Virus record (IMG/VR): IMGVR_UViG_2563366825_000016
From: a virus
Taxonomy: Duplodnaviria; Heunggongvirae; Uroviricota; Caudoviricetes
Direction: 5' to 3' (one strand)
Length of the DNA stretch: 35,712 nt
Shown: positions 4,109 through 12,401 of the stretch, piece by piece
Numbering within the stretch: the stretch's first letter is position 1
Layout: every line of letters begins with the position of its first letter
Translations under genes and position numbers: made by a program
Notes under the pieces: model-generated
The model's input: the letters and a program-made list of their open reading frames with translations, nothing else
Told to the model about the DNA's origin: nothing
Databases searched by the model: none

Positions 4109-4405
4109 TTATACCTCTGAATCAATATCAACCTGGTGGCGGGCAATAGTTTCAACCATGTACCGGATGTGTTCTGCCATGCGTTCCTGAAACTCAACAT
4201 CGTCATCAAACGCACGGGTAATGGCTTTTTTGCTGGCCCCGTGGCGTTGCAAATGATCGATGCATAGCGATTCAAACAGGTGCTGGGGCAGGCCTTTTTC
4301 CATGTCGTCTGCCAGTTCTGCCTCTTTCTCTTCACGGGCGATCTGCTGGTAGTGACGCGCCCAGCTCTGAGCCTCAAGACGATCCTGAATGTAATAAGCG
4401 TTCAT
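4109..4405 (-). CDS. gam: Gam (RecBCD inhibitor), short 98-aa form
   Basis: [60 protein letters not shown]... matches the C-terminal 98 aa of lambda Gam; AGGAG about 5 nt upstream of ATG; the upstream sequence diverges so the long form is not encoded. Confidence 0.9.
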
Positions 4406-4480
4406 GGCTGAACTCCTGAAAATGGCTGTGAAAATATCGCCCGCGAAATGCCAGGCTGATTAGGAAAACAGGAAAGGGGA

Positions 4481-4687
4481 TTAGTGATTCAGGCCGTTAC
4501 CGCGTCCGTCGAGAAAAACTTCTACGAGCAAATCACGGGTATAAGTGCGCTCGATGCCGCGATGCAGATAAAGCCGTCCGCGTAAATTAGCTGATGCAGT
4601 CCAGGTACCATCTTTGTGTTTGACCAGCATTCCTGGCATGACCGCACCTCGATTAACGGTCTGCGTTCCGTAATGTTGATGAACCAT
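4481..4687 (-). CDS. Hypothetical small protein (kil/cIII position), 68 aa from internal ATG
   Basis: ORF 4481..4723 on track; AGGAG followed 7 nt later by ATG (MVHQHYGT...) supports start at 4687; function not recognised. Confidence 0.5.
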
Positions 4688-4892
4688 AAAAAACTCCTGC
4701 CCGTAAGCTGGGCTGCTGAACATATTGAGACTTCTGCGCGTATTCAGGCGGTGGATGGCCGCCGGTTGTCATAACTAAGTCGCCTCGTTGAAGCGACTGA
4801 GGTATGAAGTGTTGAGTTGATTTCAGCTGGTCACACCGACGTTCACGCGTCCGCTTCACCCCTCGCACTCCCCGGAGTCTGCTGAAATTCAA

Positions 4893-5130
4893 GCTGCGGA
4901 TCTAAGCGGTCATCGCAACGGTGAATCAGGTGGTTGCCGTATCGTTGTGTTGTTGCGATATGGTGATAATAGCTATTGCTATTGGTGATATCAATACTTA
5001 TCGCTATTGGCTGATGTGTTTTGATATTAAATGTTTGATAGCAAAAAGAATTAATTTTGTGACTTGCATCGCATAGCGATAACTGAAGCGGGGGTTATGG
5101 TGGTTTTTCGAACGGTTTGTGTGATGAGGG
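4893..5130 (-). promoter_or_regulatory. Putative leftward early promoter/operator region (pL/OL equivalent)
   Basis: About 240 bp without a convincing ORF between the cI operon terminator and the early-left genes; contains repeated GCTATTG(G) at 4972-4978, 4978-4985 and 5003-5010, and a palindrome ATCGCATAGCGAT near 5068-5080; the 9-mer TTGCTATTG also occurs in the cI-cro intergenic region. Confidence 0.45.
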
Positions 5131-5163
5131 GGAGGCAAAAGAAAACCCGGCACGGTGGCCGGG
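5131..5163 (-). terminator. Intrinsic terminator downstream of the cI-moron operon
   Basis: Hairpin CCCGGC-ACGGTG-GCCGGG at 5146-5163; on the minus strand it is followed by TTTTCTTTTG; sits 9 bp after the stop of the 310-aa gene. Confidence 0.5.
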
Positions 5164-5171
5164 TAGCATCA

Positions 5172-6104
5172 CTATTCGATTTTTTTAACCATGTAGTTAC
5201 GTCGTGATGTTCCTAATCTTTCATTGTGAATCTCAGAAACGCTTACTACGAGCGATATTCGTTCACCAACTTTATATTTACTTTGAATTTCTCCTAACAT
5301 ATCAATCGGATAAGAAGCCTTTATTTTTCCAAGCTCGCTTGCAATCTCCAATTTCCCGTACATGGATAAAATAGCAAGTTCGCCTGATATATGCTCATCC
5401 GGTAGCTGAATGACCTTCGTTAAAGCTAAGCGAGCATTCAGTTTTTTTATATCTTCTGAAGAAATTGACACTTGTCTGGTACCATCACTTAAAGGTCCAA
5501 TCCAAGTAAGATCAAAGTTAAGACTATATTTTTCGCACTCATTTATGATGTTTTTTAGGTTAGCTGTTGATTGCGAACCAATTTCGGCAATTTTAGCCGT
5601 GAATGTTTCTTCATCAATGGATGAGAGTAGTGCAAAAATCTCCTTAACAGCATGACTGGATACTGTTTCGATGAGCTCGCAAGAACCAGTAGAAAAAGTA
5701 ACACCTAACTTCGTCGAACCTGGACGCAAGTCTGCCAATCTCATGTCTAATGATTTTTTAACATCAATCGGCACACGACTAGAATCTTTCCCAGATCCAA
5801 GTCGGTAAACTGCTTTCTGTACAAGGGATGCGAGATTACCTGAAATTACAGATAGAATATCTAACGGAATAGACCCGAAATCGACCAAAACACCTTTTAA
5901 TCTCAACTCCATGAAATCACGTAAAGGATGTTGGTTATCGATTGCACGTTGTCTCTCTCGGAGATCGCTCAGATGGGAGTCAAGTGATCTAAATATAATG
6001 TCATCAGCAAATGATCTCCCCTTATTTTGAGCAAGCAGATCCACATCGCGTTGAATGAACGCAATTCGCTCCTTGAGGGAGTTGAATGTTTTTTCTTCGC
6101 TCAT
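5172..6104 (-). CDS. Unknown 310-aa protein, second gene of a two-gene module downstream of cI
   Basis: Long ORF; start ATG overlaps the stop of the upstream gene (ATGA, translational coupling); GAGGGT about 7 nt upstream; AT-rich relative to the lambda-like flanks; no domain recognised from sequence. Confidence 0.8.
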   Translation of the reverse strand: MSEEKTFNSLKERIAFIQRDVDLLAQNKGRSFADDIIFRSLDSHLSDLRERQRAIDNQHPLRDFMELRLKGVLVDFGSIPLDILSVISGNLASLVQKAVYRLGSGKDSSRVPIDVKKSLDMRLADLRPGSTKLGVTFSTGSCELIETVSSHAVKEIFALLSSIDEETFTAKIAEIGSQSTANLKNIINECEKYSLNFDLTWIGPLSDGTRQVSISSEDIKKLNARLALTKVIQLPDEHISGELAILSMYGKLEIASELGKIKASYPIDMLGEIQSKYKVGERISLVVSVSEIHNERLGTSRRNYMVKKIE

Positions 6105-6574
6105 AACATTACCCTCACGAGGCCTTTAGGATTCTCCTTCCGATCAAAACCAAACCACCCTCTCCAGTAACTTCGCCTTTCACTATAATCGATTTCTGGA
6201 TGATTTTCAGGCAGCAAAAGAACGTCAATGCTGTAGTTTTCTTTAATAAAATCTCTATTTAACAATGAGCTAACCAATGGCATCAGCGTGTTTGGCAAAG
6301 AGTTTAGGGCCAAATAATCGACGACCACGAGTATATCTATGTCATCAGGTTCAGGTTTCTCTGTAGTGAATGAACCATCGATCCACACTTCAGAGAAACA
6401 TAGACACTGCTGATTAACAAGTTTAAATTGCTCAATAAGCTGTATAAAATTACAGTATAGCATACTTCTTCTAACGGATTTTGGGAAGGTGTCGACACAA
6501 AGAGACTTGATGCCATCACTATCCATATCATGAAATCCTGCTGTAAGAAGAGGTGGGAAGCTAGGCTTTTCCAT
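6101..6574 (-). CDS. 157-aa protein with nucleotidyltransferase-fold-like motif, first gene of the two-gene module downstream of cI
   Basis: AAGGA RBS about 6 nt upstream of ATG; motif WIDGSFTTEKPEPDDIDILVVVD fits the pol-beta-type nucleotidyltransferase signature G[SG]-x9-13-DxD; located 81 bp downstream of the cI stop on the same strand. Confidence 0.8.
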   Translation of the reverse strand: MEKPSFPPLLTAGFHDMDSDGIKSLCVDTFPKSVRRSMLYCNFIQLIEQFKLVNQQCLCFSEVWIDGSFTTEKPEPDDIDILVVVDYLALNSLPNTLMPLVSSLLNRDFIKENYSIDVLLLPENHPEIDYSERRSYWRGWFGFDRKENPKGLVRVML

Positions 6575-6655
6575 CCTAAGTCCTTGTTTATGCCATATAG
6601 CGTTCTATTTAATATTCTTGAAAAGAGTGTGCCTTAAAAAGCTACAGGCTAATTA

Positions 6656-7348
6656 TTAACCATGCTTCCTGTACGTCTGCGGCATGCTCCCAATAACCTT
6701 ACCGAAGATGAACACCCGGTTCATCTCGTCTTTCTCGATCGGGTCCCACGGTGAGTAGCTCTTGTTATCAGAGATAACCAGTAGCTTATCTTTCATCATT
6801 TGCAGGCGCTTTACATGGGCTGTGTCGTCGTACAGAAACGCATAGATACCATCACCGTCGAAAGATTTAACCGTGATATCAACGAACAGCAGATCACCTG
6901 GTTCGATCGTTCCTGACATGCTGTCACCACGCACGTTAATGATGCGGATATTTTCCGCCTTCCTGCCATCGAACATGTGACGAGCATCGTCAAACGAGTA
7001 CTCAACCGAGCGTAGAACTTCTACAAACTCACGGTTGATTACACCCGGCCCGGCACTGACTTCTATATCAAGAACGTCAATTTTGAAGTATTTGGAATGG
7101 CTGACAGCAGGCTTCCCTGATTGTTGACCGTCATTTCTCATCGGGCCTATGCCTGATGAGAGCCATTCTGTTCGAACACCCAATGCATTAGCTATTTCAA
7201 CAATTTTTGTTGAGCCGCGCGCGTTGCCGCTTGTCAGTCTCCAGATTGTGGGTTGAGCTACGCCAGACGCCTTTGCAAGAGCGCCTTGAGACATTCCAGA
7301 TTGTTCCATCGCTAGGTTTAAGCGATCAGCAAGAGTTTCTTTTTTCAT
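6656..7348 (-). CDS. cI: CI-type prophage repressor (HTH + LexA-like S24 peptidase domain)
   Basis: N-terminal HTH (SQGALAKASGVAQPTIWRL); C-terminal autocleavage motifs VRGDSMSGTIEPGDLLFVD and HVKRL (Ser/Lys dyad); track start at 7384 is TTG, so I place the start at the ATG (MKKETLADRL) at 7348. Confidence 0.88.
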   Translation of the reverse strand: MKKETLADRLNLAMEQSGMSQGALAKASGVAQPTIWRLTSGNARGSTKIVEIANALGVRTEWLSSGIGPMRNDGQQSGKPAVSHSKYFKIDVLDIEVSAGPGVINREFVEVLRSVEYSFDDARHMFDGRKAENIRIINVRGDSMSGTIEPGDLLFVDITVKSFDGDGIYAFLYDDTAHVKRLQMMKDKLLVISDNKSYSPWDPIEKDEMNRVFIFGKVIGSMPQTYRKHG

Positions 7349-7458
7349 AAGTTTTAATTTATACGCTTGCGTATTGATGGTCAAAACATGTTTTGCTATT
7401 GCTTGGATTAATACGCATTGCTATTATTCATTCATTGCAATACCAATAGGAATTGATA
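7349..7458. promoter_or_regulatory. Divergent cI/cro promoter-operator region (OR/PRM/PR equivalent)
   Basis: Intergenic region between divergent repressor genes; inverted repeat ATACGC-TT-GCGTAT at 7361-7374; second ATACGCA at 7411-7417; TTGCTATTG at 7393-7401 and TTGCTATTA at 7418-7426. Confidence 0.6.
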
Positions 7459-7686
7459 ATGACAAATCAAACCATTCAACTCGCAATCAGTATTACAGGT
7501 AGTCAAAAACGACTGGCAGATCTATGCGGTGTAGCCCAACCCACTGTTTGGCGTTGGCTACACGGTGGCGGAATTGATGCCCGCTATGTAATGAAAATTG
7601 TCTCAGCCACTGGTGGAAAGATTAAACCAGCAGATATTCGTCCCGACCTCGCACCATTGTTTAACGCGAGTAATTCTGCCGCCTAA
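7459..7686 (+). CDS. cro: Cro-like HTH regulator (75 aa from the ATG)
   Basis: Small HTH protein (QKRLADLCGVAQPTVWRWL) divergent from cI; AGGA about 9 nt upstream of ATG at 7459. Confidence 0.8.
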   Translation: MTNQTIQLAISITGSQKRLADLCGVAQPTVWRWLHGGGIDARYVMKIVSATGGKIKPADIRPDLAPLFNASNSAA

Positions 7687-7710
7687 ACTGCGGCGTTAAC
7701 TGATAAGGCA

Positions 7711-8256
7711 ATGACTATGCAACCACTTACATACCAACAGACTAGCGGATTTATCCCGACTGCGGTGATAAATCGTTCTCAAATAAAACAGGTGCCAGGC
7801 CACGAAAAAATCCGTGATGCCATCCGCGCCTGGTCGGCTGTAGATAATCAGGATGTCGTTGCCGCACTCATTGTGAATGAGTATCGAGCACAGGGCGGCG
7901 GCACTATCGATTTTCCTGATGATGTCAGTCGTGCACGCCAGAAGCTGTTCCGCTTTCTCGATAACAAATTCGATTCTGAAAAATACCGAAATAACGTGCG
8001 TGAACTGACTCCAGCAATTCTGGCAGTACTACCGCTGAAATATCGCGGCCACCTGGTTGAGCAGGATAGCTTCATGGCTCGGCTGGCTGAAATGGAAAAG
8101 GAACTCAGTGAGGCAAAACAGGCTGTCATTCTCAACGCACCACGCCACCAGAAACTGAAGGAGATGAGTGAAGGCATTGTGTCGATGTTTCGTGTGGACC
8201 CGGATTTGGCTGGTCCATTAATGGCGATGGTGACCACCATGCTGGGGGCAATATGA
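7711..8256 (+). CDS. 181-aa protein in the cII position (possibly YdaT-like regulator)
   Basis: ORF starting 24 bp after cro; family assignment is from vague recollection only. Confidence 0.65.
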   Translation: MTMQPLTYQQTSGFIPTAVINRSQIKQVPGHEKIRDAIRAWSAVDNQDVVAALIVNEYRAQGGGTIDFPDDVSRARQKLFRFLDNKFDSEKYRNNVRELTPAILAVLPLKYRGHLVEQDSFMARLAEMEKELSEAKQAVILNAPRHQKLKEMSEGIVSMFRVDPDLAGPLMAMVTTMLGAI

Positions 8257-8342
8257 CAGGTTCAGAAATGGCGAAAGTCGGTCTGCGGGAACAGAACCGA
8301 CTTTCAGGTGCAAATCGTAACACACTCATTGCGGGAGGAATT

Positions 8343-9272
8343 ATGGCAAACACTGCTGAGATATTCAATTTTCCAGTGCCGGATGCGGCACAAAAGGAGC
8401 CGCGCGTGGCAGATCTCGATGATGGTTATACGCGCATTGCAAATGAGTTGCTGGAAGCTGTGATGCTGGCCGGATTAACACAGCACCAGCTTCTGGTCTT
8501 CCTGGCTGTCATGCGCAAAACATATGGCTTTAATAAAAAACTGGATTGGGTGAGCAACGAGCAACTGTCCGAATTGACCGGGATATTGCCGCACAAGTGT
8601 TCTGCTGCAAAAAGTGTTCTGGTAAAGCGTGGGATTTTGATTCAGAGCGGGCGGAATATCGGTATTAATAATGTGGTCAGTGAATGGGCAACATTACCCG
8701 AATCAGGTAAGAAAAATAAAGTTTACCTGAAAGAGGTAAATTTACCTGAATCAGGTAAGAAAAGTTTACCCAAATCAGGTAAAGGCGTTTACCCGAATCA
8801 GGTAAACACAAAAGACAAACTAACAAAAGACAATATAAAACCTTTTTCGTCCGAGAATTCTGGCGAATCCTCTGACCAACCAGAAAACGATCTTCCTGTG
8901 GTGAAACCAGATGCTGCAATTCAGAGCGGCAGCAAGTGGGGGACAGCAGAAGACCTGACCGCCGCAGAGTGGATGTTTGACATGGTGAAGACCATCGCGC
9001 CCTCAGCCAGAAAACCGAATTTTGCAGGGTGGGCTAACGATATCCGCCTGATGCGTGAACGTGACGGACGTAACCACCGCGACATGTGCGTGCTGTTCCG
9101 CTGGGCATGCCAGGACAACTTCTGGTCCGGTAACGTGCTGAGTCCGGCCAAACTCCGCGACAAGTGGACCCAGCTCGAAATCAACCGAAACAAGCAACAG
9201 GCTGGCGTGACAGCCGGCAAACCAAAACTCGACCTGACGAACACTGACTGGATTTACGGGGTGGATTTATGA
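8343..9272 (+). CDS. O: Replication initiator O (lambda O-like), start placed at MANTAEIFNF
   Basis: N-terminal region ...RVADLDDGYTRIANELLEAV...RKTYGFNK...ISEW resembles lambda O N-terminal domain; contains the ori iterons internally; GGAGG upstream of ATG at 8343. Confidence 0.85.
   Translation: MANTAEIFNFPVPDAAQKEPRVADLDDGYTRIANELLEAVMLAGLTQHQLLVFLAVMRKTYGFNKKLDWVSNEQLSELTGILPHKCSAAKSVLVKRGILIQSGRNIGINNVVSEWATLPESGKKNKVYLKEVNLPESGKKSLPKSGKGVYPNQVNTKDKLTKDNIKPFSSENSGESSDQPENDLPVVKPDAAIQSGSKWGTAEDLTAAEWMFDMVKTIAPSARKPNFAGWANDIRLMRERDGRNHRDMCVLFRWACQDNFWSGNVLSPAKLRDKWTQLEINRNKQQAGVTAGKPKLDLTNTDWIYGVDL
8695..8842. repeat. Origin of replication: four to five 18-19 bp iterons plus an AT-rich segment inside O
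   Basis: Direct repeats T(T)TACCCGAATCAGGTAA(G/A) at about 8695-8712, 8741-8759, 8765-8783, 8788-8806, plus a degenerate copy at 8722-8740, followed by the A/T-rich stretch CACAAAAGACAAACTAACAAAAGACAATATAAAACC. Confidence 0.8.
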
Positions 9273-10297: not shown

Positions 10298-10489
10298 CTA
10301 ATTATTGGACGAAATTGGTTTTTGCTTTGGTTTAGTTAGCCTAGCAATCAAGCCAGAGGCAATAATGATGATCCAAGCAATTTGATGCAATGCTACTCCA
10401 ATATAAGAACCTTTATAGATAATAAAGGCATAGATCGCTAGAAACGAAATAAATATCCATAACGAAAGTTGATAAATTTTGGCGCGCAT
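10298..10489 (-). CDS. Small hydrophobic (2-TM) membrane protein, about 63 aa
   Basis: ORF with two hydrophobic stretches (LSLWIFISFLAIYAFIIY; IAWIIIIASGLIA); in an AT-rich segment; weak RBS; start at the ATG at 10489 rather than the track TTG. Confidence 0.4.
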   Translation of the reverse strand: MRAKIYQLSLWIFISFLAIYAFIIYKGSYIGVALHQIAWIIIIASGLIARLTKPKQKPISSNN

Positions 10490-11755: not shown

Positions 11756-11945
11756 CATACCTTTTGATTTTGTAAAATCAATTCGTAATAATAAAGTCAT
11801 CGGAGCTTGAACAACTCCGGTGACTTCTGCGCTAAACGGGGACGTTTATGCGCACATACAATCCAAACTCTCTTCTCCCTTCACAGATGCAGAAATGCAC
11901 CTGCGATTTTTTGCATCCAGCGTCTGACCTCTGCGGAGGTGAAGC

Positions 11946-12401
11946 GTGAACCTACCACAAGATGGCATCAAACTGCATCGCGGTAACTTCACCGCTATCG
12001 GCCAGCAGATCCAGCCTTATCTGGAGGACGGAAAATGCTTTCGCATGGTGCTTAAACCGTGGCGTGAGAAACGCAGTCTTTCCCAGAATGCACTCAGCCA
12101 CATGTGGTACAGCGAAATCAGTGAATACCTCATCAGCAGGGGGAAATCGTTCGCTACCGCAGCATGGGTAAAAGATGCTCTCAAACACACATACCTCGGT
12201 TATGAAACCAAGGACCTGGTTGATGTCGTAACCGGCGAAATCACTACTATCCAGTCGTTACGCCATACTTCCGATCTTGATACCGGAGAGATGTATGTCT
12301 TCCTGTGTAAGGTTGAAGCCTGGGCGATGAATATTGGCTGCCACCTGACTATTCCGCAGAGCTGCGAGTTCCAGCTGCTGCGCGACAAGCAGGAGGCGTA
12401 A
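11946..12401 (+). CDS. ybcN: YbcN-like nin-region protein (151 aa), GTG start
   Basis: Sequence matches my recollection of DLP12 YbcN; begins the nin-type gene block. Confidence 0.8.

Follow-up and report, generated by a model that had tools for sequence, protein, structure and literature searches.

The early region of IMG/VR record IMGVR_UViG_2563366825_000016, a caudoviral sequence of 35,712 nucleotides (referred to here as the window, i.e., the whole stretch of DNA that was analyzed), is best explained as the rightward immediate-early segment of a phi80/HK639-type lambdoid immunity module in which N, nut, and put are undetected, a reading that we consider likely. In gene order from the rightward early promoter pR, the segment would comprise a YdaS-type Cro, a 30-bp junction, a YdaT-family CII analogue, an 86-bp spacer carrying an antisense RNA, and the replication genes O and P. 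As an arrangement this is already documented, in phi80, HK639, Rac, and CP-933P and in the YdaS/YdaT literature. In one group of lambdoid prophages, YdaS and YdaT take the roles of Cro and CII; YdaT, a tetrameric POU-like helix-turn-helix protein, recognizes the operator (T/A)TGATT-N6-AATCAA and boosts expression of the repressor gene from a leftward promoter (PMC8630535, PMC9986795, PMC11879457).

Cro matched Pfam family PF15943 (YdaS_toxin) with an E value of 9.6e-15 (54.6 bits, against a cut-off of 30) and the PHROG transcriptional repressor family phrog_35 with an E value of 9.4e-24. The product of the 181-amino-acid open reading frame (ORF) at the cII position matched PF06254 (YdaT_toxin; E 5.6e-29, 100.9 bits, cut-off 21) and phrog_163, “CII-like transcriptional activator” (E 1.5e-65). 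Its sequence identity is 65% with phi80 CII and 51% with HK639 gp52 (what is said of HK639 here and below rests on its GenBank annotation, NC_016158), both of which match PF06254 too. Against the PDB it aligned with 8bt1 (“YdaT_toxin domain-containing protein”; E 1.3e-3) and 3c4r (E 3.3e-3), the alignment pairing RQKLFRF with TQKIFRW, i.e., with the arginine of the recognition helix kept and the tryptophan replaced by phenylalanine; the Pfam and PDB matches span residues 30 to 156 of the protein. Its BLASTP match to lambda CII was not significant (E 0.18), and it gave no match to the lambda CII family PF05269, which lambda CII itself hit as a control at E 1.1e-48. The gene order agrees with these assignments, ydaT lying immediately after a YdaS-type cro, before the replication genes, and divergent from an S24 repressor gene. 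On sequence grounds, the protein of 179 or 181 residues is thus a member of the YdaT family and the orthologue of phi80 cII, not a homologue of lambda CII. The first-pass annotation of this DNA, made from the letters alone, had stated that the protein does not resemble lambda CII and had raised a YdaS/YdaT-like arrangement as a comparison; the homology search that it proposed upholds both points.

That annotation had also started from the close spacing of the two genes. The cro gene runs from ATG 7459 to TAA 7684-7686 and the next ORF can be opened at ATG 7711, which gives the 24-bp gap originally reported. A second in-frame ATG at 7717 is preferred as the start because the Shine-Dalgarno sequence AAGG (7705-7708) lies 2 nt from ATG 7711 and 8 nt from ATG 7717, because the GenBank record of Escherichia phage PhiR30_1 (PV340558.1), 100% identical to the window across 4400-8400, starts the gene there, and because the first methionine of the HK639 and phi80 homologues aligns to the same residue. 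These points make a 30-bp gap and a 179-residue protein the probable reading. The equivalent gap measures 29 bp in HK639, 30 bp in phi80, and 29 bp in HK225, as against 118 bp in lambda, where annotated rutA, nutR, and rutB separate the end of cro (38241) from the start of cII (38360).

Apart from the ribosome-binding site of ydaT, the sole feature of the junction is a GC-rich hairpin, UGCCGC-CUAAACU-GCGGCG, with six pairs, the cro stop codon within the loop, and no U-run after it. A GCCGC(C)...(G)GCGGC hairpin over the cro stop is also present in HK639, phi80, and HK225, and the annotated phi80 terminator tL1A, after N, is a near-identical hairpin followed by U5. No covariation was seen in the hairpin, and its 5′ arm encodes the Ala-Ala-stop end of Cro. 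It may serve in translational coupling, mark a processing site, or be a terminator that has been disabled. A terminator scan detected no terminator-like site in the gap (24 to 30 bp), Rho-dependent termination being beyond computational reach; no YdaT box was found within 7500-7800 at up to two mismatches, and no lambda-type TTGC-N6-TTGC direct repeat was found at the junction, the sole match in the window (10377-10390) being at chance level. Two candidate operators near the junction were set aside. The inverted repeat GATTTATC-N11-GATAAATC at 7748-7774, within ydaT, was considered as an operator for a pRE equivalent and is not conserved in phi80. TTGATA-ATGACA-AATCAA at 7453-7470 (+ strand) matches the YdaT box at 11 of 12 positions and overlaps the cro start codon; with a 10/12 match in phage 4A7 and no counterpart at the cro start of HK639, it is a weak candidate and perhaps a chance occurrence.

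Sibling phages show how far the short junction can be taken. Among 80 IMG/VR loci carrying the same ydaT allele as the window, 53 have the window-type junction; in the remaining 27, a different YdaS-type cro precedes a 69- to 81-bp spacer with an rrn-like boxA (CGCTCTTTAACAA or CGTTCTTTAACAA). Three of these 27 also carry a boxB-like five-pair hairpin, GACUG-AUGAA-CAGUC or GACUG-AUUAA-CAGUC; the other 24 lack a 12-nt stretch, and the hairpin is thereby lost. GenBank phages with the boxA-type junction include PhiR5_1, PhiR26_1, PhiR34_1, PhiR47_2, Turner, and IdasGreatGrand, and the three that were aligned (PhiR26_1, PhiR47_2, and Turner) have the same N-less leader downstream of the leftward promoter pL as the window. 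The sibling cassette may represent boxA-only (Nus-factor) antitermination or a decaying relic. Because phi80 combines an annotated N gene with the same junction, and because the siblings have a boxA spacer in front of the same cII, a short junction is, as these comparisons indicate, neither proof of an N-less phage nor a requirement for one. The first-pass argument that there is no room for a nutR/tR1 cassette is therefore not diagnostic; the broader suggestion that it served, that early regulation here does not follow the lambda N/nut scheme, draws its support instead from the tests for N and nut themselves, all of which were negative.

As for N, the lack of a convincing gene on the left arm, already remarked in the first-pass annotation, was borne out by PHROG, Pfam, and tblastn alike. 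Neither the left-arm ORFs nor the ORF in the pL leader (see below) matched the N-like and Nun-like families phrog_271 and phrog_5632 or any Pfam N family; lambda N (E 9e-24) and HK022 Nun (E 1e-68) served as positive controls for the PHROG search. The remaining left-arm ORFs all fall in non-N PHROG families, and tblastn of N-type proteins against the window gave a best E value of 0.32; no relative of N, Nun, or phi80 N emerged. The proposed boxA/boxB and put searches likewise found none of these elements downstream of either early promoter. At up to one mismatch, boxA CGCTCTTTA had three matches, all in the late region, versus 6.8 expected; boxA GCTCTTTAACAA at up to two mismatches occurred at chance level, and no copy fell within the pL leader or close to cro-ydaT. 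Seven nine-mers (6.2 expected) but no nutL/nutR-like motif are common to the pL leader and the pR operon. The two have no boxB pair, hairpins HP1 and HP2 of the pL leader and the cro-stop hairpin all differing in stem and loop, and the phi80 nutL core hairpin is absent from the window, as it is from the right operon of phi80 itself. A covariance model of put, built from HK022 putL, HK022 putR, and HK639 putL, recovers those three at 69 to 96 bits; its best match in the window scored 11 bits (E 0.41, in the late region), and nothing above 11 bits was found in 4A7, HK225, or ENT1. HK022 put was not found in the window by pattern (0 matches), blastn-short, or nhmmer (best E 2.5), and a whole-window Rfam scan at E ≤ 1 returned just one chance microRNA match. 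By these measures there is no recognizable N, nut, or put in the window, and the HK022-like alternative offered in the first-pass annotation loses its footing with the negative put model.

What occupies the place of nutL and N is the pL leader, followed in order by kil (phrog_294), gam, bet, and exo; the equivalent kil gene is annotated in the RefSeq genome of phage 4A7. The leader behaves as a discrete module: when phages of two immunity types are compared, homology sets in close to the pL transcription start and breaks off at the kil ATG, also in cases where kil is of another type. Its first 156 nt are present in 2,210 of 5,426 complete Escherichia coli genomes (~41%) at 95 to 99% identity, and no RefSeq/PGAP feature lies under them in the 30 complete E. 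coli genomes listed. The leader folds no more stably than shuffled sequence (z-score −0.16). Three parts make up its 3′ block. The first is HP1 (4798-4778, − strand), whose stem shows compensating changes in each lineage. The second, AUGACAACCGGCGGCCAUCCACCGCC, is invariant and holds HP2 (4763-4747, − strand) together with a mini-ORF that opens with MTTGGHPPP, and the frame in which the third, GCGCAGAAGUCU, is read varies. The block also occurs in phi80, HK639, HK225, and ENT1, where a strong intrinsic terminator immediately precedes it and kil or the next gene follows. It lies after N/tL1A in phi80 and after putL in HK639; the HP2 part is an annotated terminator in HK639 and lies within the tL1 region in phi80.

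The leader also contains an arginine-rich ORF, which opens at GTG 4859 after a good Shine-Dalgarno sequence, begins VKRTRERRCDQLK (VKRTRERR...), and recalls the arginine-rich motif of the lambda and P22 N proteins. We compared it across 42 distinct leader variants from IMG/VR. It is fused in frame to kil in 29, is stopped at codon 21 in 9, and contains a 5-nt frameshifting insertion in 3, one of which has also lost the start codon; it stands as a separate, 68-amino-acid frame in a single variant, that of the window. Given the stops, frameshifts, start loss, and fusion to kil in most variants, and with no PHROG or Pfam match, the ORF was rejected as a candidate N. The “Kil” coding sequence in the GenBank record of PhiR30_1 (window 4653-4859, − strand) corresponds to this nonconserved leader ORF, the KilR-like gene being at 4481-4687. 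An extra T before the kil ATG (six T residues in the window, five in most relatives) splits the frames of the leader ORF and kil.

At the other end of the segment, the boundary at 8342 with which the first-pass annotation closed the region proves to be a meaningful one. In the 339-amino-acid ORF downstream of ydaT, alignment to the PHROG O-like profiles begins at residue 31, the methionine of ATG 8343 and the probable start of O; because the O profile begins there, 8257-8342 can be regarded as a real 86-bp spacer. On the opposite strand, a promoter scan gave TTGAAT-17-CATAAT at 8368-8340, and a strong hairpin at 8305-8273 is followed by UUUCGCCAUUUCU (fold z-score −3.3, with 0 of 200 shuffled sequences as stable). 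This unit aligns positionally with the M3 RNA of phi80 (“homolog of lambda oop”) and the M3-like RNA of HK639; its U-tract is weak, and it matches no Rfam model. An oop/M3-like antisense RNA is probably encoded between ydaT and O.

A further regulatory site lies some distance downstream. TTGATT-TTGTAA-AATCAA at 11764-11781 (+ strand) is the sole 12/12 match to the YdaT box in the window, where matches at up to two mismatches number 8 versus 2.3 expected, and its sequence is that of the footprinted YdaT operator (PMC9986795, PMC11879457). It overlaps a promoter-like TTGATT-17-AATAAT upstream of orf33-ninB-rusA-Q. In phage 82 the same element is annotated as a putative promoter, with the half-sites kept around a different spacer; HK639 has both half-sites upstream of ninB, again with a spacer different from that of the window, and HK225 and phi80 have TTGATA-N6-TATCAA at the corresponding place. 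We collected 121 IMG/VR sites anchored on the hairpin just downstream, and in nearly all of them homology starts exactly at TTGATT: the upstream flanks are unrelated and the six-base spacer is variable, with the right half-site and the −10 element kept. Upstream DNA extends for 8 kb or more in 23 box-bearing loci, a set that had no control set beside it; their cII gene is of the YdaT type in 19, of the lambda type in 2, and of neither in 2. The hairpin itself (11796-11824) reads GUCAUCGGAG-CUUGAACAA-CUCCGGUGAC, CUUGAACAA being the loop, and is annotated in phage 82 as a “possible regulator-binding site”. Its arms change compensatingly in HK225 and phi80, with most of the loop (UGAACAA) kept, and phi80 has an annotated “IR4” repeat pair in the matching stretch. 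After the hairpin come a 33-codon ORF (orf33 of phage 82) and then the invariant stretch CACAGAUGCAGAAAUGCACCUGCGAUUUU (within 11764-11950), which can be drawn either as a short hairpin plus U-run (11888-11905) or as a longer, 10-pair hairpin and has the look of an attenuator before ninB.

Taken together, these features suggest how such a module might work. The genes after pR, from cro through the CII analogue and O to P, make up a single unbroken unit, with no terminator-like site detected by scan before the moron region. In the absence of a nutR/tR1 gate, the CII-analogue gene, O, and P would be co-transcribed with cro from pR as immediate-early genes. The YdaT protein, by analogy with Rac and CP-933P, would bind TTGATT-N6-AATCAA as a tetramer and favor synthesis of the repressor. 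With lower confidence, the nin-Q block would have a YdaT-controlled promoter of its own, such that N-antiterminated pR transcripts would not be needed to reach Q and the CII analogue would gain a direct hold on the late switch; repression by YdaT would be the more likely mode of control because the box sits between the −35 and −10 elements. Going further, the whole early program of this prophage family might run without N/nut or put, through either its own YdaT-gated nin-Q promoter or a new kind of antitermination element in the leader, a proposal to which we give a fairly low probability. In the version with its own promoter, there would be no processive antitermination, and the CII analogue may gate the late switch, replacing lambda paQ or even N.

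Several observations weigh against this explanation. The putative nin promoter is a consensus match, and it would have to be kept off because a free-running promoter before Q would be lethal to the lysogen. No YdaT box separates cro from ydaT, and no pRE equivalent was located; the 11/12 match that overlaps the cro ATG (7453-7470) drops to 10/12 in 4A7 and has no counterpart in HK639, and the CII of 2 of the 23 box-bearing loci is of the lambda type. The case for the absence of N is made of negative results, and N proteins are short and poorly conserved, that of phi80 being itself an orphan family in PHROGs; moreover, in phi80 an annotated N and nutL accompany this very junction. Inside the left operon, at 1985-1967 (− strand), lies a fairly canonical intrinsic terminator-like site, an eight-pair stem followed by TTTTATTATT between the orf61-like and DksA/TraR-like genes, and in the right operon ~480 nt between the ren and lipoprotein genes are untranslated in the pR direction. 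Both would seem to need antitermination or extra promoters. Finally, with a boxA after cro and the same leader in the siblings, Nus-factor-based antitermination may operate in the group.

Some of the same observations can be turned into explanations of their own. A divergent N-like system could be hidden in the window, with the cro-stop hairpin as a boxB-like nutR and an orphan N analogue encoded somewhere, as might be suspected from the annotated N and nutL that accompany the identical junction in phi80, the conservation of the hairpin in four lineages, the boxA cassette of the siblings upstream of the same cII, and the arginine-rich ORF at GTG 4859. On that view the compact junction would be a small-scale version of the lambda scheme. 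We regard this as improbable: the ORF is not maintained among the 42 leader variants and is unannotated in the 30 genomes listed, the other left-arm ORFs belong to non-N families, the pL leader and the pR operon have no common hairpin or motif and the early leaders no boxA, and the hairpin shows no covariation, its 5′ arm simply spelling the end of Cro. Only slightly better placed, and still unlikely, is a new cis-acting antitermination RNA within the ~270-nt pL leader, similar to putL in position and role and unrelated to it in sequence. The leader is indeed a discrete module exactly at the place of putL/nutL, and its first 156 nt are spread through 2,210 of the 5,426 genomes, but neither the hidden Markov model nor the covariance model found similarity to put, the folding z-score is unremarkable, the right operon has no counterpart, and the 3′ block (HP1, AUGACAACCGGCGGCCAUCCACCGCC, and GCGCAGAAGUCU) is linked in phi80 and HK639 to terminators, i.e., to the opposite role.

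It is very hard to believe, by comparison, that the short gap is an annotation artefact and that the cII-position gene truly starts further downstream. There are two in-frame ATGs (7711 and 7717), and alignment to the PHROG profile begins no earlier than residue 19; set against this are the alignment of methionine 1 of HK639 and phi80 to 7717, with similar N termini (MQPLTYQQ/MHSLAYQQ), a Shine-Dalgarno spacing that is right for 7717, and a gap of 29 to 30 bp in all four lineages. The phi80/HK639-type module without detectable N, nut, or put remains the reading that we favor, and the features on which it is built are collected in Table 1.

Table 1. Features of the early region, with positions in the window.
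Feature	Position	Strand	Basis or remark
kil (KilR-like), first gene after pL	4481..4687	−	phrog_294, E 3.4e-39
pL leader, ~270 nt	4688..4958	−	Place of lambda nutL/N; no N-like gene
pL-like promoter, TTGATA-17-TATTAT	4966..4994	−	Promoter scan; within OL operator repeats
Probable pR, TTGCTT-17 bp-TATTAT	7399..7427	+	Read from sequence; inferred, inside operator cluster
cro, YdaS family, 75 aa	7459..7686	+	Pfam and PHROG profiles
GC-rich hairpin over cro stop	7677..7695	+	Fold; conserved in relatives
cro-cII junction	7687..7716	+	No boxA, put, or terminator-like site
cII-position gene, YdaT family, 179 aa (181 from ATG 7711)	7717..8256	+	Orthologue of phi80 cII
Probable oop/M3-like antisense RNA unit	8262..8368	−	Promoter scan, fold, positional alignment; RNA ends inferred
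Replication protein O	8343..9272	+	Probable true start 8343, PHROG profile
YdaT-box palindrome and promoter-like site	11764..11792	+	Upstream of orf33-ninB...Q
Conserved inverted repeat/hairpin	11796..11824	+	Just downstream of nin promoter-like site

The operator cluster at pR is made of repeats of CAATAGC/GCTATTG, and the pR −10 element, TATTAT, is identical to that of the pL-like site. On the other strand, cI probably starts at ATG 7348 (230 amino acids, as in 4A7) and not at TTG 7384. A promoter-like TTGACC-17-TAAATT at 7384-7356 (− strand) would put the transcript start at or next to this ATG, and the cI mRNA would then be leaderless, as in lambda and CP-933P. The position of rexA/rexB (5172-6574, − strand) is taken by genes for a 157-amino-acid DUF6932 protein and a 310-amino-acid protein, which match parts A and B of the PADLOC candidate defense system PDC-M63 (E 7e-43 and 4e-42) and are followed by a terminator-like hairpin at 5164-5145. 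Relatives have other cassettes in this position (GevT/GevA, HipA, and ASCH-domain genes).

The annotated genes of the PhiR30_1 record include cI, Cro, cII, O, P, Ren, NinB, RusA, Q, and lambda-like structural genes. Window coordinates equal those of PV340558.1 minus 405 rightwards from ~2490, with an offset of 40 further left; 365 bp of the DNA adenine methyltransferase region of PhiR30_1 are missing from the window (window ~2290-2650 versus PV340558.1 2338-3049). Because of these missing 365 bp, and the shift in offset from 40 to 405 that goes with them, the window is a close relative or deletion variant of PhiR30_1 and not an exact copy. Other near relatives are the Bievrevirus phages 4A7, Lambda_4C10, D2, 1W, and 3W and several other PhiR phages.

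Annotators should read the “cII” of this very common E. coli prophage group as a YdaT/phi80-type regulator, and lambda N/nut timing should not be assumed for the phage of the window. Its early operons have no recognizable antitermination device despite their terminator-like sites and untranslated stretches. If the nin promoter is real and YdaT controlled, a lysis-lysogeny regulator would act directly on the late switch, and such a scheme, if true, would be a simple and testable alternative to the lambda cascade in a widespread prophage family.

Of the known systems, phi80 (NC_021190; gene 30-cII-M3 RNA-gene 15) shares with the window a YdaS-type Cro, a 30-bp gap with the GCCGCC...GGCGGC hairpin over the stop codon, a 180-amino-acid YdaT-family CII with 65% identity, an oop-like antisense RNA between cII and O, and a palindrome, promoter-like site, and hairpin upstream of the ybcN/ninB-position gene. 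It differs in its left arm, with an annotated N, a nutL boxA and core, and tL1A/tL1B where the window has the leader alone, and in its palindrome, which is TTGATA-N6-TATCAA versus TTGATT-N6-AATCAA. HK639, an N-less lambdoid phage, has a 29-bp cro-cII junction with the same hairpin, a 181-amino-acid YdaT-family CII-like protein (51% identity), an M3-like RNA after cII, and a perfect TTGATT-N6-AATCAA upstream of ninB; unlike the window, it has an annotated putL-like antiterminator RNA after pL (putL only). The YdaS/YdaT pairs of Rac and CP-933P belong to the same Pfam families, have the same order after the repressor gene, and have been shown by experiment to work as Cro and CII equivalents, but sequence identity between their YdaT and the window protein is distant (8bt1, E 1.3e-3), and their strong box is at the ydaS/ydaT boundary, where the window has none, its perfect box lying 4 kb downstream before ninB. 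Rac and CP-933P are also defective prophages, whereas PhiR30_1 is a deposited phage genome with E. coli C as its listed host.

The resemblance to lambda lies in the positions of cro, the cII-function gene, the oop-like RNA, O, and P and in the leftward and rightward early promoters that flank the S24 repressor gene. In lambda the gap measures 118 bp, with nutR and the Rho-dependent terminator tR1 inside it, where the window has 30 bp; the 97-residue lambda CII is a PF05269 protein that binds TTGC-N6-TTGC direct repeats, and lambda pL is followed by N and nutL, neither of which follows pL in the window. HK022 is, like the window, lambdoid without an N antiterminator, but it has several features that the window lacks: putL after pL, putR in a 121-bp cro-cII gap, Nun at the N position, and a CII of lambda size (98 amino acids).

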